DNA of 46,967 nt, taken from Gaiellaceae bacterium. GTDB taxonomy: Bacteria > Actinomycetota > Thermoleophilia > Gaiellales > Gaiellaceae. The DNA is taken from assembly GCA_041487575.1 (NCBI GenBank), contig JBGPNP010000001.1, forward strand, positions 1-46,967. Direction: 5' to 3'. Position numbers and translations under genes: made by a program. Positions 21,816 through 40,898 of the stretch are shown here, piece by piece. Every line of letters begins with the position of its first letter. Positions within the stretch are counted from its first letter, which is position 1. The notes below the pieces were generated by a model. The model ran no database searches, had not been told where the DNA came from, and saw nothing but the letters and a program-made list of their open reading frames with translations.

Positions 21816-23243
21816 TCAAGCGACTCGCGCGTAGAGCACGGCGTGGGCATCGCGCGCGACCTCTCGGAAGCCGGGTGTTGTCGTCAGCCGCCGCTGCGCC
21901 GGGCTCCCCACGGTCACGAGCACCGCTCGGGGGGCGCGATCGAGTGCCCGCTCTCCCGAGAGCACACCTTCTAGCCAGTCGAGGTAGAGGCGCTGATCCG
22001 GCCCCGCGAAAGCGTCGATCGGGTTCGCGATCCAGACCCGGGCGCCGGCCGCGGCGAGCTGCTCGGCGGGGAGTGCGTCGGCGAGGATCGGTGTCCCGGC
22101 CGCGAGCGCCGCCGAGCGGGCCAGCAAGGCCGTGCTTGCGCCAGCCTGCGCCGGCTCGCGCACGAGCCCGAGAACGAGGAGGAGCGCCACGCTCGCCGAT
22201 CCTGCCAGCACGGCAACGCGTGGTAGCCGCATGGATCTGGCGGGAAGCGGTAGCCCACGCGCCGCCGGCCCGGCGGCGAAGAGCGCGAGCCAGACACCGT
22301 TTCGCCCGGCCTGCGCCGTGAGGAGAGCCAGCCCCGCCAGGCCAGCGAGCTCCCACATGGCCGGACGCGCCCTCAGCGCAAGCGCCACGAGGCCGAGGGC
22401 CGAGACGACAAACGCCACGTCGAAGAGCGATCGAACCGAGAGTGGCGCCCAGAGGCCGGCGCCGCGGCGGGCGGCCTCGTTCGAGAGCACCCCGATGTAG
22501 TAGTCGGGTGTCTGCCAGAGGCTCGGCGTCAGGCAGAGCGCGAGCGCCGAGGACCCCAGGACCGTGACCGCCTCGGCCGGCGAGCGACGGGCTCGGCCGA
22601 GCACGAGGTAGGCCCCCGCGAGCAGGAGCCCCAAAAGCGCCCCGCCGTGGAGGTTCGACCAGAGCGCCAGCAGCGGCACGAGCAGCCAGATCCGCCGCGA
22701 CGGCGCCCGCGCCTCCGACCGGAGCAGGACGACGAGCGCCGGGAAGAGCGCGAGCGAAAAGAGCTGGGCCCGCACGACGACGAAGGCCTGCAGGCAGGCA
22801 ATCACGACGATCAGGAGCACAAGGGCCCGCGCAAGTTCCGGGGCGCCCGCGCGGCGCATGTCGAGCGCCAGAAGCCCGAGCGCGCACGCGACCGCGAGCA
22901 CCTGCGCCAGCACGAGCCCGCGGTCGCCGGGTCCGGCCGCGAGGCCGTGGAAGACAACCTCTCCGAGCACGGGGACGTTCTGCCACCCGTCCGAGACCGC
23001 AGTTGCGAATGGCACCCCGTCCGGGATCCGACCTGTGCGAACGATCGCGCCGCCGAGCGCGACGAGCCAGCGCGCGTCCGCTCCCACCGTCGCCATGAGC
23101 GCGCACGCGGCCGTCGCAAACGCGACCGTGAGCCACGTGACGCACGCGCTCGCGAGACGACCTTGCTTGGCATCCTCCCGAGCGAAGCGAAGGGACGAGC
23201 CCCCGCCGGGGACAATGCGGAGCATTTTCCCCGGTTTACTCAC
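21816..23243 (-). CDS. polytopic integral membrane protein (10 or more predicted TM helices) with a soluble C-terminal domain; family not recognised, possibly GT-C-like
   Basis: 475-aa ORF. The GTG start overlaps the TGA of the upstream gene (GTGA). Contains many hydrophobic helices. The first 24 codons coincide with a repeated element. Confidence 0.7.
   Translation of the reverse strand: MSKPGKMLRIVPGGGSSLRFAREDAKQGRLASACVTWLTVAFATAACALMATVGADARWLVALGGAIVRTGRIPDGVPFATAVSDGWQNVPVLGEVVFHGLAAGPGDRGLVLAQVLAVACALGLLALDMRRAGAPELARALVLLIVVIACLQAFVVVRAQLFSLALFPALVVLLRSEARAPSRRIWLLVPLLALWSNLHGGALLGLLLAGAYLVLGRARRSPAEAVTVLGSSALALCLTPSLWQTPDYYIGVLSNEAARRGAGLWAPLSVRSLFDVAFVVSALGLVALALRARPAMWELAGLAGLALLTAQAGRNGVWLALFAAGPAARGLPLPARSMRLPRVAVLAGSASVALLLVLGLVREPAQAGASTALLARSAALAAGTPILADALPAEQLAAAGARVWIANPIDAFAGPDQRLYLDWLEGVLSGERALDRAPRAVLVTVGSPAQRRLTTTPGFREVARDAHAVLYARVA
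23171..23243 (-). repeat. copy 1 of the stop-codon-anchored hairpin plus 26-nt box element
   Basis: GTGAGTAAA, then hairpin CCGGGGAAAATGC-TCC-GCATTGTCCCCGG (one mismatch), then GTCCCTTCGCTTCGCTCGGGAGGATG. That box is identical to 38961..38986. Confidence 0.8.
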
Positions 23244-24695: not shown

Positions 24696-26564
24696 CTAAC
24701 CCTTGAAGGAGACGATTCGCTTGAGGATGAAGGAGCCGAACGCCATCATCCCCAGGCCCAGGAAGATGAGCTTGTGGCCGGTCGAGCTCTGGTAGAGGGG
24801 CTGCATGTACTCCGAGTTCACGAGCGTCACGAGGAGCGCGATGAAGAACGGCAGCGCGATGAGGACGTAGGCCGAGGCCCGCCCCATCGCCGTCAAGCCC
24901 TTGATCTTCCGCGCGAACTGCTGGCGGTTGCGCACGGTCTCGGCGACCATGTCGAAGAGCCCGGCGAGGCTGCCGCCCACGGTGCGCTGGATGTTCACCG
25001 CGCTGATGACGAACTCGAGGTTGCTCGAGCCGATCCGCTCGGCCATATCCGAAAGGGCCTCCTCCATCCCCCGCCCGAGCTGCGTCTCGGTGAGGACCCG
25101 CTTGAACTCCTTCGCGGCCGGGTCGACGCCCTCGTCCACCACCGTCTGAATCCCCTGCCGGAAGGAGTGGCCGGCCTTGAGGGACGCCGCCATCGTCACG
25201 AGAAGGTCGGGGAGCTGGTTCTCGAAGGCCTTGAGCCGCCGGCGCGCCTTGAAGGAGGCGAAGCCGTACGGGAGCCAGGCCCCGCCGATCATCGCGGCGA
25301 GAATCGCGACGCTCGACACCCCGGCGACCGCCGCGGCGAAGCCGAAGAAGAGGCCGGCGCCGGCGATGATGTAGACGAACTCGACCGTCCGCAGCGGCAG
25401 ATCGGCGCGCGCAAGCCGCTGCTCGAGCCGGAGCCAGAAGCGCTTGCGCCCGAGGGCGCGCTCCGTGGCATGGAAGAGCGCAGCCGCCGCGGCGAGGCGC
25501 TGGCGGTCCGCCCGCCGGCGCGACTGCCGCCGCTTCTCGCCGACGTGCGGCTGGATCCGCGCACGCACCCAGGAGCCCTTCGGCCGGGTGAGCCCGAGCA
25601 GCGCGGCGACGAGCACGATCAGCCCGATCCCGAAAGCGAAGGCCTTCGGCCCCCACGACGTCTGGAAGAGCTGCTTCGGCAGGAGCTTCGACGGCCCAGG
25701 CCGCGAGACCGTGACCGAAGTTCCAGGCATCCGCGCGTCAGTCGTCGCGGACTCGCCGCCGGCCGTCGCCTCGAGATGGAGGAGCTCGCCGGGCCTGGCC
25801 GCGGTGACGTACTCGAGCTGCCAGGTTCGCCGGAGCTCCGCCGCGAGCGAGTTGTAGACCGAGCCGAGCGCCGCGCTCGAGGCGGCGCCGAAATAGCGTC
25901 CGCCGGTCGCCTCGGCGATCTGCCGGAGCGGCTCAGGCGAGAACTGGGGACCCTCGATCGCGATCGGGTAGACGGCGACGCCGGCCTGCCGGGCCGCCGC
26001 GACCGCGTCCTCGAGCGTGGCCTTGCTCGAGACGTCACGGCCGTCGGTGAGAACGATGAGCACCCGGCCTGGAAGCAGCTCGGACGCAAGCGCGTGCGCC
26101 GCGAGGACGACGGCGTCGTAGAGCGCCGTCCCGGGCATGTCGCCGATGGCGAGCGTCCGCAGGGCGGTGTCGGCGTCGATCGTCGACGTCGAGAAGCCGG
26201 TGAGCTGCTCGGCGGCACTCCCGAACGTCACGACGGCGATGCGGTCGGCGGAAGGCTTCGCCTGGAGAAACGCCCGCGCCGCAGATGTCGCGTCCGCGAG
26301 CGCCTTCCCTTGCATCGATCGCGAGCTGTCAACGGCGAGCACGACGCTCGTGAAGCGCGCGAGGTTCTGCGCCGAGAAGCCCGCCACCGGCTGCCCGTTC
26401 TCGGTTAGCTCCGGCGGCGGCGCGGAGATGGTAGGCGCCACGACCAGCGCGTGGACGACCGGGTAGCCGGCCACGTCGACACCCCGGATCTCGACGCCGG
26501 CGCTGGCCGCCGGGACGGCGGCTAGCGCCCAGATAGTGAGCAGGATGCGCAGCATCCTGCTCAC
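24696..26564 (-). CDS. tadB: fusion protein: signal peptide plus extracytoplasmic vWA domain plus TadB-like T2SS F-domain platform protein
   Basis: vWA MIDAS motif VVLAVDSSRSMQG and LTDGRD. C-terminal half has LPDLLVTMAASLKAGHSFRQGI (T2SSF). The GTG start overlaps the tadA stop (GTGA). Confidence 0.85.
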   Translation of the reverse strand: MSRMLRILLTIWALAAVPAASAGVEIRGVDVAGYPVVHALVVAPTISAPPPELTENGQPVAGFSAQNLARFTSVVLAVDSSRSMQGKALADATSAARAFLQAKPSADRIAVVTFGSAAEQLTGFSTSTIDADTALRTLAIGDMPGTALYDAVVLAAHALASELLPGRVLIVLTDGRDVSSKATLEDAVAAARQAGVAVYPIAIEGPQFSPEPLRQIAEATGGRYFGAASSAALGSVYNSLAAELRRTWQLEYVTAARPGELLHLEATAGGESATTDARMPGTSVTVSRPGPSKLLPKQLFQTSWGPKAFAFGIGLIVLVAALLGLTRPKGSWVRARIQPHVGEKRRQSRRRADRQRLAAAAALFHATERALGRKRFWLRLEQRLARADLPLRTVEFVYIIAGAGLFFGFAAAVAGVSSVAILAAMIGGAWLPYGFASFKARRRLKAFENQLPDLLVTMAASLKAGHSFRQGIQTVVDEGVDPAAKEFKRVLTETQLGRGMEEALSDMAERIGSSNLEFVISAVNIQRTVGGSLAGLFDMVAETVRNRQQFARKIKGLTAMGRASAYVLIALPFFIALLVTLVNSEYMQPLYQSSTGHKLIFLGLGMMAFGSFILKRIVSFKG

Positions 26565-28012
26565 TGGAAGCCGCCGTAGGTCGCGGCGGCAAAGACAGGC
26601 CGGAAGGTCGCCTCCTCATGCTCGAAGAAGTTCGGCGCGAGGACGACCCCGTTCGCCGCGATCTTTTCGAGGAAGTGTGGCTTGAGGCCGGAGCAGCCGA
26701 GCGGAGAGAGAAGGCGCATCCCGTGCGTCGCGGCGGCCGTCTCCTCGTCGGGCGGCTTCGCCACGAAGATGTCCTGGAGCGTGATCACGTCGGACTCCAT
26801 GCGGAGCACCTCAGTGACGTGGCTGATCCGGCGGGAACCGTCGACGAGGCGCGTGATCTGGATGAGCAGGTCGAACGCGCTCGCTACCTGCTCGCGGATG
26901 GCGCGGAGCGGCAGGTCGACTCCCGCGGTGAGGACGAGCGTCTCCATGCGGGCGAGCGCGTCGCGCGGCGAGTTCGCATGGATCGTCGTCAGCGAGCCCT
27001 CGTGGCCCGTGTTCATGGCCTGGAGCATGTCCAGCGTCTCCGCGCCGCGGACCTCGCCGACGATGATCCGGTCGGGCCGCATGCGCAGGGCGTTCCGGAC
27101 GAGCTCGCGGATCTTGACTTCGCCCTGGCCCTCGATGTTGGCCGGGCGCGACTCGAGCGTGATCACGTGCTCCTGCTGGAGCTGGAGCTCGGCCGCGTCC
27201 TCGATCGTGACGATGCGCTCGTCGCCGGGGATGTACGCAGAGAGGGCGTTTAGGAGCGTCGTCTTGCCCGTGCCCGTGCCGCCCGCGATGAGCACGTTGA
27301 GCTTCCCGCGCACGCAGGCCGAGAGGAAGTGCGCGGACTTGGCGGTGAGCGACCCGAAGGTGATCAGGTCGTCCATCGTGTACGGGTCGCGCGCGAACTT
27401 CCGGATCGTCAGCGCCGGGCCCCTGAGCGCGAGCGGCGGGATGATCGCGTTGACGCGGCTCCCGTCCGGGAGGCGCGCGTCCACCATCGGCGAGGCTTCG
27501 TCCACGCGCCTGCCGACCTGGGAGACGATCTTGTCGATGATGCGCAGGAGGTGAGCGTTGTCGACGAACGCCGACGACGTCTTCTCGATCTTCCCGGACC
27601 GCTCGATGTAGATCCGGTCGAAGGCGTTGACCATGATCTCTGTGACGGAGTCGTCGCGGAGAAGCGGCTCCAGCGGCCCGTAGCCCAGGATGTCGTCGGT
27701 GATCTCGCGGACGATCTGGCGCCGCTCGTCGCGGGTGAGGGGCGTCCGGTCGAGGGCTAGCTGCTCGGTGACCGCGCGGAGGACACGCTCGGCAAGATCC
27801 TCGGTCGTCTCGGCCGAGAAGAGCTGCGGGCCGATCTTCGCGATGACGGCGTGATGGATGCGCGTCTTGAGCTCGGCGTAAGGGTCGGAGGCGCGCGGCG
27901 CGCGCGCCTCCCGGGTCTGCGGCGCCGAGACCAGCGGCGGCGCCGTCGCCTCGGCCAGCCTGGTGACCGAGCCGCTTCCGTTGGTGGTCTTGAGGCGGTC
28001 GGAGAGACCCAT
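26561..28012 (-). CDS. tadA: Flp pilus assembly ATPase TadA/CpaF
   Basis: Walker A GGTGTGKTT, a VirB11/GspE-type secretion ATPase core, and a CpaF-like N-terminus. Confidence 0.95.
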   Translation of the reverse strand: MGLSDRLKTTNGSGSVTRLAEATAPPLVSAPQTREARAPRASDPYAELKTRIHHAVIAKIGPQLFSAETTEDLAERVLRAVTEQLALDRTPLTRDERRQIVREITDDILGYGPLEPLLRDDSVTEIMVNAFDRIYIERSGKIEKTSSAFVDNAHLLRIIDKIVSQVGRRVDEASPMVDARLPDGSRVNAIIPPLALRGPALTIRKFARDPYTMDDLITFGSLTAKSAHFLSACVRGKLNVLIAGGTGTGKTTLLNALSAYIPGDERIVTIEDAAELQLQQEHVITLESRPANIEGQGEVKIRELVRNALRMRPDRIIVGEVRGAETLDMLQAMNTGHEGSLTTIHANSPRDALARMETLVLTAGVDLPLRAIREQVASAFDLLIQITRLVDGSRRISHVTEVLRMESDVITLQDIFVAKPPDEETAAATHGMRLLSPLGCSGLKPHFLEKIAANGVVLAPNFFEHEEATFRPVFAAATYGGFQ

Positions 28013-32996: not shown

Positions 32997-33116
32997 CTAC
33001 TTTGCCTCTTTGGGCTTCCCCCGCGCAGCGGGGGAAGCCTTGCGCTTCGTGCGCGCCTTCTTCTTGCGCTGGCGGTCGTTCTGCCAGCGAACGATTGCCC
33101 TGTCTCCGCGACCCAT
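32997..33116 (-). CDS. candidate 39-aa highly basic small protein (MGRGDRAIVRWQNDRQRKKKARTKRKASPAARGKPKEAK)
   Basis: Hand-translated ATG..TAG ORF with no strong SD. It contains the perfect hairpin at 33013..33039, which argues against coding. Confidence 0.25.
   Translation of the reverse strand: MGRGDRAIVRWQNDRQRKKKARTKRKASPAARGKPKEAK
33013..33039. repeat. perfect 12-bp stem, 3-nt loop inverted repeat GGCTTCCCCCGC-GCA-GCGGGGGAAGCC
   Basis: Read directly from the sequence. Confidence 0.9.
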
Positions 33117-33238: not shown

Positions 33239-33270
33239 GGGTAGGGGCGAGGCACGCCTCGCCCCTACCC
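33239..33270. repeat. perfect 14-bp stem, 4-nt loop inverted repeat GGGTAGGGGCGAGG-CACG-CCTCGCCCCTACCC
   Basis: Read directly from the sequence. Lies 26 nt upstream of the GTG start at 33296, with no U-tract on either side. Confidence 0.9.
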
Positions 33271-37699: not shown

Positions 37700-38881
37700 A
37701 TGGCCCGGCCCCTACGCGACGTCTACCTCGTCGACGGCGTGCGCACGCCTTTCGGCAGAGCCGGCCCCCAGGGGCTCTTCTGGCACACGCGCGCCGACGA
37801 TCTGGCGGCACGAACGATCCGGGAGCTCCTGGGCAGGAACCCGAGCCTCCCGCCCGAGCGGATCGACGACGTCGTCCTCGCCGCGACCGCTCAGGTCGGC
37901 GACACGGGCCTCACGCTCGGGCGCAACGCGGCGCTCCTCGCCGGGCTCCCGGTCACCGTACCCGGCTTCGCCGTCGACCGCATGTGCGCCGGGGCGCTCA
38001 CGGCGATCACGAGCGCCGCCGGTGAGATCGTCTGGGGCGCCGCCGAGGTCGTTGTCGCGGGCGGCGCCGAGCACATGGGCCGCCACCCGATGGCCGAAGA
38101 GGTGGACTTCAACCCCCGCTACGTTGCCGAGCGACTGGTCGACCCCTCGGCCGTGACGATGGGCGCGACGGCCGAGAACCTCCACGACCGCTTCCCGCAC
38201 CTGACGAGGGAGGCGGCCGACCGCTACGCCGTCGAGTCGCAGCGCCGCGCCACCCTGGCGTGGGAGAACGGGATCATGCGCGCGACCGTCTTTCCGCTCA
38301 CCGTCTGGAGCGCGAGCGGCTGGGTCCTCGCCGAGCGCGACGAGTTCCTTCGCCCCGACACGACGACCGAGGCGCTCGCGAAGCTGCACACCTCCTTTCG
38401 CCCCGGAGGCCGCGTTACCGCCGGCAACTCGGCCGGCCTCACCGACGGCGCTGCCGCCTGCCTGCTCGCCTCCGGCGAGGCCTGCGAGGAGCTCGGCCTC
38501 GAGCCGCGCCTTCGTCTCGCCGGCTTCGCCTACGCGGGCGTCGAGCCCGAGCTCATGGGCCTCGGGCCAGTGCCGGCGACGCGCAAGGCGCTCGCGCAGA
38601 CCGGCCTCACGCTCGACGACATCGGCCTCTTCGAGCTGAACGAGCCCTTCGCCGTCCAGGTGCTCTCCTGGTGCGACGAGCTCGGCGTCTCTCCCGACGA
38701 CCCGCGCCTGAACCCGAACGGGGGCGCCATCGCCTGCGGCCACCCACTGGCCGCGACCGGAGCGCGCCTGGCGACCCAGCTCGCCTGCGAGCTGGCCGAG
38801 CGCCCGGACGTCCGCTACGGCCTCACCGCCCTTTGCGTGGGCTTCGGCATGGGCGCCACCCTGGTGTGGGAGCGTCCTTGA
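37700..38881 (+). CDS. acetyl-CoA C-acyltransferase (thiolase)
   Basis: Internal ATG (MARPLRDVYLVDGVRTPFG) of track ORF 37547..38881. Contains DRMCAG (active-site Cys), NPNGGAIACGHPLAATG and LCVGFGMG. Confidence 0.92.
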   Translation: MARPLRDVYLVDGVRTPFGRAGPQGLFWHTRADDLAARTIRELLGRNPSLPPERIDDVVLAATAQVGDTGLTLGRNAALLAGLPVTVPGFAVDRMCAGALTAITSAAGEIVWGAAEVVVAGGAEHMGRHPMAEEVDFNPRYVAERLVDPSAVTMGATAENLHDRFPHLTREAADRYAVESQRRATLAWENGIMRATVFPLTVWSASGWVLAERDEFLRPDTTTEALAKLHTSFRPGGRVTAGNSAGLTDGAAACLLASGEACEELGLEPRLRLAGFAYAGVEPELMGLGPVPATRKALAQTGLTLDDIGLFELNEPFAVQVLSWCDELGVSPDDPRLNPNGGAIACGHPLAATGARLATQLACELAERPDVRYGLTALCVGFGMGATLVWERP

Positions 38882-38986
38882 GTAATCCGCGAAAAATGCT
38901 CCGCATTTTTCGCGGTGGATCTCCAGGAAAGACGCTGCGCGTCTTTCCTGGCAGAGGTTTGTCCCTTCGCTTCGCTCGGGAGGATG
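38878..38986 (+). repeat. copy 2 of the stop-codon-anchored element: two related perfect hairpins (38887..38915, 38924..38950) plus a 26-nt box (38961..38986)
   Basis: TTGAGTAAT, CCGCGAAAAATGC-TCC-GCATTTTTCGCGG, CAGGAAAGACGC-TGC-GCGTCTTTCCTG, then GTCCCTTCGCTTCGCTCGGGAGGATG. Confidence 0.85.
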
Positions 38987-39009
38987 TTCCCCGGCGGGCC
39001 GGCCGATGA
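38878..39009 (+). other. candidate 43-codon micro-ORF spanning the element (MSNPRKMLRIFRGGSPGKTLRVFPGRGLSLRFAREDVPRRAGR)
   Basis: The TTG overlaps the thiolase TGA (TTGA) and its TGA overlaps the fadB-like ATG (ATGA). GC3 is only about 53%, which is atypical for coding sequence in this genome. Confidence 0.3.
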
Positions 39010-40898
39010 GCCGCACGGAGTTCAAGCTGAACCGGGCGCGTGACGTCGCGCTCGTCACGATCGACAACGGTGAGGGCCCGGCGAAGCCGAACGTCTTCGA
39101 CGAGGCCGCACTCGCATCGCTCGCGCGGACCCTCGACGAGGTCGAAAGGGGAGACTTCGCGGCGCTCCTCATCACCGGCAAGCCGTACTCCTTCTCAGCC
39201 GGAGCGGACCTCGACGAGTTTCCGGAGCTGATCGAGCCCGGCCGGTCAGCTGCAGGCGCGCGCGCCGGGCACGAGCTTTTCGGCCGCATCCTCCGGCTCT
39301 CGATCCCCACGCTTGCCGCGATCAACGGCGTCTGCGTCGGCGGCGGGCTCGAGCTCGCCCTCTTCTGCCGGTACAGGACGATCTCGACCGCCGTCCGCCA
39401 CTTCGGCTTCCCGGAGTGCTTCCTCGGGCTCGTCCCCTCCTGGGGCGGGACGCAGCTCGCGCCGCGCGTCGTCGGGCCGAAGACAGCCCTCGAGGTGGTC
39501 GTCTTCAACCCGATGCGCCAGAACCGCCTGCTCACTGGCGCCAAGGCGTTCGAGCTGGGGTTCGCCGACCGGCTCTTCGGCCCTGCGATGTTCCTCGACG
39601 AGTCGCTCGCCTTTCTCTGGGAGATCGTCGCGCGTAGCGACTTCGAGCGGCCCGAGCCCGACTGGGAGGGGAGCGAGGAGCTCTTCCGCCAGGCGCGCCG
39701 CCGCCTCGACAGCCTCGTGCACGGCGCGGCCCCCGCTCCCTACCGCGCGCTCGACCTCGTGGAGGGCGCACGCACGTGGTCGCTCGAGGAGGGCTTCCGC
39801 CGCGAGCAGGAGGCGGCCGAAGAGCTCATCCCCGGCCGGCACTGCCAGGCCTCGGTCTACGCGTTCAACCTCGTCGACCGCCGCGCGAAGCGTGGCCTGG
39901 GAAGGCCGGACGCGGCGGCGCGCCCGGTCCAGAAGGTCGGCGTCGTCGGCGCCGGCCTCATGGCGACGCAGATCGCCGCCCGCATCCTCGAGCGCCTGCA
40001 GGTGCCGCTCGTGATCACGGACGTCCGCCCGGAGGCCCTCGAGGAGGCCCGCGCGACGCTCGAGGACCCTCGCCGCCTCCTCCTGACGACGACCTCGTAC
40101 GCGGACTTTGCCGGCTGCGACCTCATCATCGAGGCCGTCACCGAGGACACGGCCGTGAAGCGGGACGTCTTCCGGCGGCTCGAGACCGTGGTCGGGCCGG
40201 AGTGCGTCCTCGCCACGAACACCTCCGCGCTCTCCGTCACGGCGATCGCGTCCGGCCTCTCGCACCCCGGCCGCGTCGCCGGCATGCACTTCTTCAACCC
40301 GGTCGCGCTCATGCCGCTCGTCGAGATCATCCGCGCCCAGGAGACGAGCGACGACGCGCTCGCGATCGTCTTCGACGCGGCTCTCGAGCTGCGCAAGCGC
40401 CCGGTCGTCATGGGCGACGGCCCTGGCTTTGTCGTCAACCGCGTCCTCACGCGCATGCTCGCCGCCAACCTCGACGCGCTCGAGCGCGGCAACTCCTTCG
40501 ACGAGGTGGACGACGCGATGCTCTCGCTCGGCCTGCCGATGGCGCCCTCGACGCTCCTCGCCCTCGTCGGCCCGAACGTCGCACTCCACGTCCTCGAGAC
40601 GATGCACGCCGCCTTTCCGGAGCGCTTCCACCTCTCGGAAACGCTCGCGAGCATCGCCGCCGGCAGCGACGAGATCGTCCTGAAGACACGCGACCCGCTG
40701 CCGAAGGAGGAGATCGCCGGTGTGGCGCTCTCGGCCATGGCGGATGAGATCTCCCACCTCCTCGCCGACGGCGTCGTCGGCGACGTCGCCACGGTGGACA
40801 CCTGCCTCATCCTCGGGGCCGGCTTCCCGTTCTTCCTCGGCGGCATCTCGAAGGAACTCGACGCGCGGGGCCTTGCCGTCGGCGCGAGTGCGGTATAG
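39006..40898 (+). CDS. bifunctional enoyl-CoA hydratase / 3-hydroxyacyl-CoA dehydrogenase (FadB/FadJ-like)
   Basis: Crotonase-fold N-domain (FSAGADL). Rossmann motif VGVVGAGLMATQIA and a 3HCDH C-domain. Confidence 0.92.
   Translation: MSRTEFKLNRARDVALVTIDNGEGPAKPNVFDEAALASLARTLDEVERGDFAALLITGKPYSFSAGADLDEFPELIEPGRSAAGARAGHELFGRILRLSIPTLAAINGVCVGGGLELALFCRYRTISTAVRHFGFPECFLGLVPSWGGTQLAPRVVGPKTALEVVVFNPMRQNRLLTGAKAFELGFADRLFGPAMFLDESLAFLWEIVARSDFERPEPDWEGSEELFRQARRRLDSLVHGAAPAPYRALDLVEGARTWSLEEGFRREQEAAEELIPGRHCQASVYAFNLVDRRAKRGLGRPDAAARPVQKVGVVGAGLMATQIAARILERLQVPLVITDVRPEALEEARATLEDPRRLLLTTTSYADFAGCDLIIEAVTEDTAVKRDVFRRLETVVGPECVLATNTSALSVTAIASGLSHPGRVAGMHFFNPVALMPLVEIIRAQETSDDALAIVFDAALELRKRPVVMGDGPGFVVNRVLTRMLAANLDALERGNSFDEVDDAMLSLGLPMAPSTLLALVGPNVALHVLETMHAAFPERFHLSETLASIAAGSDEIVLKTRDPLPKEEIAGVALSAMADEISHLLADGVVGDVATVDTCLILGAGFPFFLGGISKELDARGLAVGASAV

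Follow-up and report, generated by a model that had tools for sequence, protein, structure and literature searches.

Introduction

REP and BIME sequences are short, imperfect, extragenic palindromes that often lie within operons near stop codons and are assembled into modular mosaics in which structure is conserved. REPs are recognised as single-stranded DNA hairpins, with one strand being preferred, and they form hairpin barriers in mRNA. [quoted passage not shown] The internal open reading frame (ORF) of a MIRU is coupled to the neighbouring gene at -4 nt, minimising the effect of the repeat on expression (PMC12548453). Here we analyse an element that is closest in behaviour to REP/BIME sequences and MIRUs, yet fails their defining features, having no GTAG, no known RAYT and no tandem arrays. 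It fills the spacer between a thiolase gene and a fadB-like gene in a 46,967-nt stretch of DNA from a Gaiellaceae bacterium (GenBank assembly GCA_041487575.1, contig JBGPNP010000001.1, positions 1 to 46,967 of the forward strand), which we refer to as the window. The element is composed of one or two copies of a 13-bp hairpin (stem-loop 1, SL1), a G-rich spacer and a second, shorter stem-loop (SL2) with a Shine-Dalgarno (SD)-like end. With a probability that we put at roughly 0.6, the spacer is a copy of an insertion-derived, operon-compatible intercistronic element of a REP/BIME- and MIRU-like kind.

The likeness to MIRUs is seen in the placement of the element between operon genes, 41 of 47 resolved junction types being co-directional, and in the -4 arrangement, which the window copy has at both of its ends. 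Moreover, in-phase ORFs that bridge the two flanking genes are over-represented in the family. MIRUs, however, form arrays of tandem 46-101-bp units, whereas the units of the element are always single and only SL1 is sometimes doubled. In addition, the element is defined by two covarying hairpins and the SD-like end, with no fixed frame, and its taxonomic range is of the Gaiellales type. With REP/BIME sequences the element shares SL1, a 29-nt palindrome of which at least 97 copies exist, spread over at least 54 junction types. There is, however, no GTAG-type tetranucleotide at the foot of this palindrome, the flanks of SL1 being unconserved and A/T-rich; only GYTWG is found, and it precedes SL2. 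We noticed no RAYT gene among the flanking ORFs inspected, which come from genome fragments. The element also differs from REPs in being biased in its orientation relative to genes (34 to 7), and in having a second, non-palindromic module with the SD-like end and apparently duplicated start/stop overlaps at its flanks.

MITE-type repeats (ERIC, Correia/NEMIS, RUP and BOX) and Rickettsia palindromic elements (RPEs) resemble the element in being small, non-autonomous hairpin repeats that are co-transcribed and can carry expression signals. Apparent target duplication is a further point of similarity, and, like RPEs, one window copy of the element may be translated in frame with the gene that follows it. 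In contrast to MITEs, the element is without terminal inverted repeats, has a duplication of variable length, and is far smaller than most of them. Integron attC sites are similar only in the idea of bottom-strand folding; the element has no RYYYAAC...GTTRRRY cores, and the genes that flank it are core genes at conserved positions.

Architecture of the thiolase/fadB spacer

The thiolase ORF carries Thiolase_N/C domains, and the start of the fadB-like gene at 39006 is backed by homologs of 629-631 amino acids that cover 100% of the query. The 124 nt between the thiolase stop codon and the fadB-like ATG (38882-39005), together with the adjoining ends of the two genes, contain the following features.

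38879-38881, plus strand: thiolase stop codon TGA, within TGAGTAA (38879-38885)
38878-38881, plus strand: TTGA, the stop TGA plus the preceding T; possible TTG start of the bridging ORF
38882-38886, plus strand: A/T-rich linker GTAAT with a second stop codon, TAA
38887-38915, plus strand: SL1a, perfect 13-bp hairpin CCGCGAAAAATGC-TCC-GCATTTTTCGCGG
38923-38951, plus strand: SL1b, perfect 13-bp hairpin CCAGGAAAGACGC-TGC-GCGTCTTTCCTGG; extra SL1-type module
38952-38961, plus strand: G-rich spacer CAGAGGTTTG, the 3' end of which is the family motif G-Y-T-W-G
38961-38986, plus strand: 26-nt box GTCCCTTCGCTTCGCTCGGGAGGATG
38962-38981, plus strand: SL2, 4-bp stem TCCC/GGGA with the near-invariant 12-nt loop TTCGCTTCGCTC; core of the box
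38978-38983, plus strand: SD-like GGGAGG, overlapping the 3' arm of SL2
38984-39005, plus strand: variable 3' tail ATGTTCCCCGGCGGGCCGGCCG, which runs into the putative overlap relic on the right
39006-39009, plus strand: ATGA, with the fadB-like start ATG at 39006 and the stop TGA of the bridging ORF at 39007-39009
38878-39009, plus strand: bridging ORF of 43 codons plus stop, with a 4-nt overlap with each flanking gene

An original prediction, made from the letters of the window, had described TTGA and TGAGTAA at the thiolase stop, a 124-nt spacer, a 43-codon ORF and ATGA at the fadB start, all of which are present at these places, as is the perfect 13-bp first hairpin with its TCC loop. The second hairpin, which had been described as a perfect 12-bp stem, is perfect and differs from the first by paired substitutions (four stem positions differ between SL1b and SL1a, and 4/4 are compensated), but its length is 13 bp. 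SL1a corresponds to the lone SL1 of the orthologous junction L070, with which it shares the TCC loop and the stop-adjacent position. SL1b lies inside the 36 nt that the window copy has gained over single-hairpin copies, and together with SL2 it aligns as a full unit, scoring 75.1 bits, to the covariance model of the family described below. The 26-nt box is the SL2 stem-loop plus the SD-like tail GGGAGG, which at 38978-38983 is 22 nt from the fadB ATG and thus beyond optimal ribosome-binding distance. Across copies of the family the linker between stop codon and SL1 is A/T-rich and 0-6 nt long, and the sequence 3' of SL2 is not conserved from locus to locus. Folding of the region 38876-39012 has a z-score of -4.5 for the sense RNA and of -6.5 for the antisense DNA. 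In light of the junction comparisons presented below, TTGA at 38878-38881 is best explained as the left relic of an ancestral NTGA start/stop overlap, and ATGA at 39006-39009 as the right relic of the overlap once duplicated.

When the window is searched for the box at up to 3 mismatches, exactly one other match is found, at 23171-23196, where shuffled sequences lead one to expect 0. This copy is identical to 38961-38986, as had been predicted, and is located on the minus strand, which the prediction had left unstated. Reading on that strand gives the same order of parts, namely the stop codon, TGAGTAA, a single imperfect hairpin, the spacer and the box, and we refer to this sequence as copy 1.

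23171-23243, minus strand: copy 1, consisting of TGA-GTAAA, SL1, spacer, SL2 and GGGAGGATG
23234-23206, minus strand: SL1 of copy 1, with one mismatch
23195-23176, minus strand: SL2 of copy 1

The distance from TGA to box is 46 nt in copy 1 and 82 nt in copy 2 (38878-39009), reproducing the 36-nt difference originally reported. Copy 1 lies between the genes for an RTX-repeat protein and a 469-aa membrane protein in a Tad-pilus-like cluster; the element is present in 4/4 orthologs of this RTX junction that were examined, and the outer SL1 stem covaries among them. Within the copy 1 region (23080-23243, minus strand) there is no in-frame start from SL2 to the conserved transmembrane start VTWLTVAF of the membrane protein, and the ATG directly 3' of GGGAGG is out of frame with this protein, which the gene caller starts at an ATG within SL1 (MLRIVPGGGSSLRFARED...). 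Either the element is translated here as an N-terminal extension, as in RPEs, or a 1-nt indel is present. The ortholog of copy 1 in L145 has an ordinary ATG 4 nt past GGGAG. A composite transposon formed by the two inverted window copies, which are 15.6 kb apart, was considered and rejected because each window copy is common to orthologous junctions elsewhere.

A family of modular two-hairpin elements

Using a 20-mer from the box, CCTTCGCTTCGCTCGGGAGG, as a genome query gave 22 loci, and in 8 of these, which belong to Gaiellales, Gaiellaceae or 'uncultured Actinomycetes' metagenome-assembled genomes, the same architecture is seen, the element following a stop codon directly and being closely followed by a start codon. 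When metagenomes were scanned with a gapped pattern, at least 120 loci were obtained, with approximately 105 in the family among the matches listed. The covariance model, which was seeded with 24 diverse copies, gave 97 matches at E <= 1e-8 in 562 kb, including copies outside the metagenome pattern selection. Overall, at least 114 elements in at least 54 flanking-sequence groups are present in Gaiellales-type genomes and soil metagenomes, and their density amounts to 2 copies in the 47-kb window and, in the DNA that flanks the loci, to approximately one extra copy per 60 kb. The proposal that the spacer holds a REP/MITE-like palindromic element, for which a search of relatives and a covariance model had been suggested, is borne out to the extent that many further copies exist in relatives and covariation is strong.

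Each unit is approximately 62-70 nt long and contains SL1 (one or two modules), a G-rich spacer ending in GYTWG, and SL2. In the SL1 consensus, a 13-bp stem with conserved inner arms (GAAAATGC/GCATTTTC) and five variable but complementary outer pairs is closed by the loop T-N-C, and in the SL2 consensus a variable 4-bp stem carries the loop TTCGCTTCGCTC and is followed by GGGAG(G/A). Two SL1 modules in tandem precede a single SL2 in L099 (2223-2330), and in L145 (1115-1200) a truncated SL1 5' arm precedes a complete SL1; the doubled hairpin of the window is therefore a recurrent variant.

Rfam 15 gave 0 matches in the window at the gathering threshold, the best sub-threshold scores being below 19 bits relative to thresholds of 44-79, and nothing relevant was found when the region at E <= 10 and 13 loci at E <= 1 were searched against Rfam. 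Neither this check nor the comparison with known REP/MITE families, both raised in the original prediction, yielded a match. BLAST searches of plasmid and phage collections gave no match to the element, and literature searches on the loop strings and on Gaiellales repeats returned only unrelated primers and papers, with no description of the element. The element is apparently an undescribed family of two-hairpin repeats with a modular SL1(1-2)-SL2 structure.

Covariation of both stems

In the alignment used for covariation, which is model-fitted, 92.3% of cells are paired compared to 78.4% in shuffles, and 0/500 shuffles reach 92.3%. Changes on both sides are seen at 13 of the 17 pairs, in 175 cells relative to 40.7 expected, while slid registers give 35-54% pairing and the stem boundaries of SL1 and SL2 are both sharp. 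Variants of the SL2 stem include TCCC/GGGA, ACCC/GGGT, TACC/GGTA, TGAC/GTCA and ATCT/AGAT, among others. Thus both stems covary, as expected for the structured element that had been proposed originally. Compensation is also evident at orthologous sites, with the L23/L2, S14/S8 and RTX junction series all covarying. At several junctions, the upstream gene ends within SL1, its final codons and stop codon forming the 5' arm, to which the 3' arm is complementary.

CGATGA/TCATCG: SL1 arms over the coding end of rplB
AGCATGA/TCATGCT: SL1 arms over the coding end of rplF
TCGTGGTAA/TTACCACGA: SL1 arms over the coding end of rpsN in L077

The synonymous change of the last rplB codon from CGA to CGC is paired with a change from T to G in the 3' arm, and reverse-oriented copies also keep the structure. 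The 13-bp stem is kept intact either by selection or by templated correction of the palindrome.

Location among genes and probable insertion into start/stop overlaps

Co-directional gene pairs flank 41 of the 47 resolved junction types, 34 with the element in sense and 7 with the element in antisense orientation; of the remainder, 4 are convergent and 2 are divergent. The upstream stop codon lies at -7 to +6 nt relative to the base of SL1 (7 nt inside to 6 nt outside) in nearly all cases, and at 30 independent loci the spacer from stop to start is 60-89 nt long, so that the element is the whole spacer. Ribosomal protein junctions are represented by L23/L2, L2/S19, S14/S8 and L6/L18, with three copies in one 8-kb ribosomal protein locus, and further junctions include pyruvate dehydrogenase (PDH) E1alpha/E1beta, the gene after hemB, the gene mdh, gyrB/gyrA and an AddAB-like pair. 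At many loci other than the window, the start codon is 1-12 nt past SL2 and a few nt past GGGAG (e.g., 4 nt in L145).

Empty and filled versions of the same junctions were found. At rplF/rplR the empty sequence is GCATGACC or TAATG in three contigs, and the filled one, in L014, is GCATGA-element-GCTTGAGC; at rplB/rpsS the empty sequence in L131 is CGTTGAGTAG, and the filled one, in five other contigs, is CGATGA-element-TTGAGTAG. For thiolase/fadB, a 79%-identical ortholog has a 4-nt gene overlap, L070 has one SL1 and SL2 with GATGA on both sides, and the window has two SL1 modules. The sequence upstream of fadB in an 88%-identical relative (L143) is unrelated to the element; this sequence (1-110) starts with the nested palindrome GGGTGGGGGACGCTGGTCCCCCCGCCACCC, and a called 36-aa ORF shares ATGA with the fadB start. 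In the family as a whole, A precedes 12 of 18 upstream TGA stops (ATGA), relative to a background of 0.073 (p = 2.6e-10), and 18 of 30 downstream starts are followed by A (NTGA), relative to a background of 0.197 (p = 1.4e-6). Some sites have longer flank repeats, at times of 8-9 nt; L028, for example, has CGCATGAGC and the PDH junction has ATGCCTGA, and in a 9-mer test the similarity of the flanks is above all 200 permutations.

On the basis of these sequence comparisons, we infer that the element is of insertional origin and arose at these sites by duplicative insertion into the NTGA overlaps of operon genes. Insertion into an ATGA overlap, and duplication of that overlap, would account for the 4-nt overlaps at both ends of the window copy. 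The original prediction had missed that the box is a covarying stem-loop with an SD-like GGGAGG, that the second copy is inverted, and that the overlaps are best explained as the remnant of a duplicated ATGA.

Other roles for the region were also considered. A promoter scan of the element region found none, and a search for tRNA genes beside reverse-oriented copies found none. An intrinsic terminator was rejected; the T run is within the stem, paired to an A run, the single terminator-like site is an artefact, and copies are located within ribosomal protein operons. Efforts to assign the direction of replication from GC skew were uninformative for the origin and terminus because the sign change near 32 kb tracks gene orientation, the coding strand being C-rich on both sides.

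The bridging ORF

That the 43-codon ORF codes for a functional small protein (MSNPRKMLRIF...) is hardly credible. The frame is open, with a 4-nt overlap with both neighbours, and gene callers put element sequence into ORFs at other loci. Nevertheless, the GC content at third codon positions (GC3), originally estimated at approximately 53%, is indeed 0.53 as against 0.91 and 0.94 in the flanking genes, and unit lengths, of 67-74 nt, differ by 1-2 nt, which are not multiples of 3. Moreover, each of the three frames of the element is used by some bridging ORF at other loci, the peptides being unrelated, and the paired substitutions keep stems rather than codons. A micro-ORF starting from the ATG inside SL1 was rejected as a conserved feature; it has many end points, often stopping early at the TAG of GTTAG, and changes of the SL1 ATG to ACG occur, compensated in the stem. 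The conserved-protein reading of the 43-codon ORF is thus effectively refuted. Database proteins P0121-P0124, from several metagenomes, begin with the translated element, reading MLR(I/A)(V/F)PGG..LRFARE or, in a different frame, ..SPVASLGS.

The micro-ORF of the original prediction fails as a peptide gene, then, but stands, more weakly, as a coupling ORF. Where a left-hand ATGA is combined with a right-hand NTGA, the spacer length is 1 mod 3 and both genes are overlapped by an open ORF at 6/8 loci (p = 0.02), and an in-phase bridging ORF is present at 7/9 eligible loci when the window is included (p about 0.01). Many loci are without any ORF that overlaps both flanking genes. In the window, the distance of 22 nt between GGGAGG and the ATG makes relay through the bridging ORF the more plausible route to fadB translation.

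Folding of the two strands

We use bottom strand for the strand that is antisense to most flanking genes. This strand is predicted to be the more stable in 64 copies of SL1 versus 4, and in 80 copies of SL2 versus 10, and there are 70 A.C mismatches versus 19 of the G.T type, A.C being a G.T wobble on the other strand. In the bottom strand, the SL1 loop T-N-C appears as G-N-A with a closing C-G pair, giving GCGCAGC, GCGGAGC or GCGAAGC, and the SL2 loop on that strand is GAGCGAAGCGAA, which contains GCGAAGC. The natural variants of the SL2 loop, which are few, alter only the N of GNA and a predicted bulged nucleotide. DNA mini-hairpins with the sequence GCGNAGC are 'extraordinarily stable', with a melting temperature of 70-76 °C, are far weaker as RNA, and are known at the phage G4 origin, RSF1010 ssiA and the hairpin promoters of phage N4 virion RNA polymerase (PMC13037366). 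The bottom-strand loops of the element have the same GC-GNA-GC form (GCA, GGA or GAA in SL1; GAA in SL2), but the known sites are single and located on phage or plasmid single-stranded DNA, whereas the element is present as tens of chromosomal copies between core genes.

Since the structure is kept in reverse-oriented copies, the requirement for it would be at the DNA level or independent of orientation, and the simplest explanation of the orientation bias is that selection favors having the SD-bearing, weaker-folding strand as mRNA. By analogy with REP sequences and RAYT transposase, the strand pattern points to recognition of a single-stranded DNA hairpin.

Other hairpins in the window and in other loci

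Two adjacent long hairpins, GGCGCTGGCCGCCG-GGA-CGGCGGCTAGCGCC and AGTGAGCAGGATGC-GCA-GCATCCTGCTCACT, are present in the window at 26499-26565 (minus strand), where a CpaF-like ATPase gene adjoins a VWA/TadB-like gene, and on the strand antisense to these genes both loops read GNA. The second of these has the core ATGC-TGC-GCAT as in SL1, with the upstream TGA within its 5' arm and without SL2, and it overlaps the GTG/ATG start of the next gene and a signal-peptide-like N-terminus (MLRILLTIWALAAVPAASA). A perfect 12-bp hairpin at 33013-33039 (GGCTTCCCCCGC-GCA-GCGGGGGAAGCC) and a 14-bp hairpin at 33239-33270 (GGGTAGGGGCGAGG-CACG-CCTCGCCCCTACCC) are located in or near the divergent intergenic region between the minus- and plus-strand gene blocks.

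A second, related hairpin family has CCGCGCGAAAGC-TGC-GCTTTCGCGCGG, then CCGC-TTC-GCGG and more GC-rich hairpins, the loops being T-N-C or G-N-A, and is found at these sites, in contigs of the same kinds as those that carry the element.

L051, 3692-3753
L115, 689-760
L104, 14538-14598
L083, 6738-6810
L114, 2649-2721

In Acidobacteriota, Gemmatimonadota and a Firmicute (L008, L012, L015, L021, L022 and others), the 20-mer CCTTCGCTTCGCTCGGGAGG is an arm of long inverted repeats, GTCCTCCTGAGCGAAGCGAAGGATC ... GATCCTTCGCTTCGCTCGGGAGGAC, and these non-actinobacterial loci seem to represent another repeat, shared across phyla and constructed around the same GAGCGAAGCGAAGG unit. The low-GC metagenome contigs L043, L055, L071, L121 and L135 contain a hairpin with the core AATGC-TTC-GCATT followed by a stem around TCGCTTCGCTC, the second stem in L121 being GCGATT-TCGCTTCGCTC-AATCGC. 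These hairpins may be distant relatives in other phyla or may reflect convergence.

Discussion

In the reading that we favor, the element would have inserted duplicatively into NTGA overlaps, converting the 4-nt overlap of the thiolase and fadB genes into a 124-nt spacer, and would persist through its compatibility with operon expression. In the preferred orientation, it would bring a Shine-Dalgarno sequence just 5' of the displaced start codon; alternatively, as in the window, an in-phase ORF with 4-nt overlaps with both genes would relay ribosomes by termination-reinitiation, as has been suggested for MIRUs. In mRNA, the hairpins probably act as REP/BIME hairpins do, either as exonuclease barriers or as ribosome obstacles at the stop codon.

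Several observations weigh against this reading. An exact longest-common-substring test for target duplication is not significant, the direct repeats in the flanks vary from 4 to 9 nt with no fixed length, and no terminal inverted repeats are seen at the ends that these repeats define (e.g., TATCCACG... versus ...GAGGTTGT in L028). No transposase or mobilising gene was recognised among the flanking ORFs inspected, which came from noisy automatic protein extraction on genome fragments, and the empty sites could be precise secondary losses by recombination between flank repeats. Old orthologous sites retain the structure and the SL2 loop in either orientation, which is more in keeping with a host function than with inert selfish DNA. 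The distance of 22 nt between GGGAGG and the ATG takes the window copy out of the SD argument, while the evidence for relay is statistical only, with small numbers of loci, and could be a by-product of a fixed element and duplication length. In addition, 41 of the 70 A.C mismatches are at one pair, the two sides of which vary almost independently, and so the inference about the strand rests mainly on the loops. Finally, the metagenome pattern required exact AATGC, GCATT and SL2 loop sequences in most copies, although the outer SL1 stem and the SL2 stem, in which the covariation sits, were left free.

The spacer might instead be a dedicated cis-regulatory element of the polycistronic mRNA, kept by host selection and read by a putative trans-acting factor, which we regard as rather unlikely. 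On this account, the terminating ribosome would melt SL1 at the stop codon and SL2 would present or half-sequester the SD sequence, so setting the translation ratio of the cistrons or the stability of mRNA segments, either by RNA-unfolding coupling or through a processing site between protective hairpins. The strong covariation, together with an unpaired SL2 loop and GYTWG that are invariant at ancient orthologous sites, is in agreement with such a role, as are the position of the stop codon, inside SL1 or no more than approximately 6 nt away, and a 3' arm that follows synonymous coding changes. Moreover, GGGAG overlaps the 3' arm of SL2 and is at SD distance from many starts, the host genes form core operons (ribosomal proteins, PDH and gyrBA), and RNA-unfolding coupling is an established mechanism, in which, likewise, the hairpin starts at or includes the upstream stop and the SD sequence is partly paired (PMC12548453). 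In the element, however, the start is 60-89 nt from the stop, no alternative SL1-SL2 pairing was found, and SL2 is very weak, its 4 bp (about -3 kcal/mol as RNA) being hardly able to mask an SD sequence. The mRNA-sense strand folds more weakly, with U-N-C loops and an A.C mismatch in 41/97 copies, and structure is still kept in the approximately 15% of junction types that are reverse-oriented. Variation in the presence of the element at essential junctions indicates that it is dispensable, and the overlap relics at its flanks point to insertion. Alternatively, the element might be a DNA-level site, the bottom strand of which would extrude two GCGNAGC-capped hairpins that a single-strand-specific enzyme (a HUH/RAYT-like nuclease, primase or recombinase) binds or cuts, any effects on expression being incidental. 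We consider this improbable. The bottom strand folds better in nearly all copies, both of its loops are GC-GNA-GC, very stable as DNA and much weaker as RNA, and variation in the SL2 loop is confined to the predicted bulge and the N of GNA. Whichever way the element is turned relative to transcription, its structure is kept, and other long hairpins of the window are also GNA-looped on the gene-antisense strand. Nearest-neighbour energies, however, favor the bottom strand only modestly, orientation tracks gene direction (34 to 7), and in the window the inversion of one copy relative to the other goes with that of the genes, unlike what a replication-oriented DNA site would predict. The flanking ORFs inspected included no candidate enzyme gene, and a pure DNA role leaves the SD-like end and the tight stop-start fit unexplained. 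These two accounts and the favored one, of an insertion-derived and operon-compatible element, overlap.

Tentatively, the element might exemplify a class of operon-adapted cassettes of approximately 65 nt that target and duplicate start/stop overlaps, carry their own ribosome-binding signal, which would make them tolerable even to essential operons (ribosomal proteins, gyrBA and PDH), and are propagated or maintained via bottom-strand GCGNAGC hairpins read by a putative single-strand-specific enzyme; or it might mark a lineage-wide intercistronic regulon with a putative RNA-binding factor.

Few soil actinobacteria are as abundant, or as little studied, as the Gaiellales, and the element spans genera within their core operons and is easily recognised. 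It misleads gene callers, 'proteins' that start MLRIF...SLRFARE being element sequence, and systematically distorts start calls. The element marks dozens of junctions at which translational coupling was physically broken and apparently rebuilt, providing a natural experiment on the tolerance of operons to insertion, by means of an SD sequence in cis or relay ORFs, that parallels the poorly understood MIRUs. If recognition is indeed of the bottom-strand mini-hairpins, the GCGNAGC motif would have its first large chromosomal repertoire in this family, which would then point to a putative hairpin-reading enzyme.

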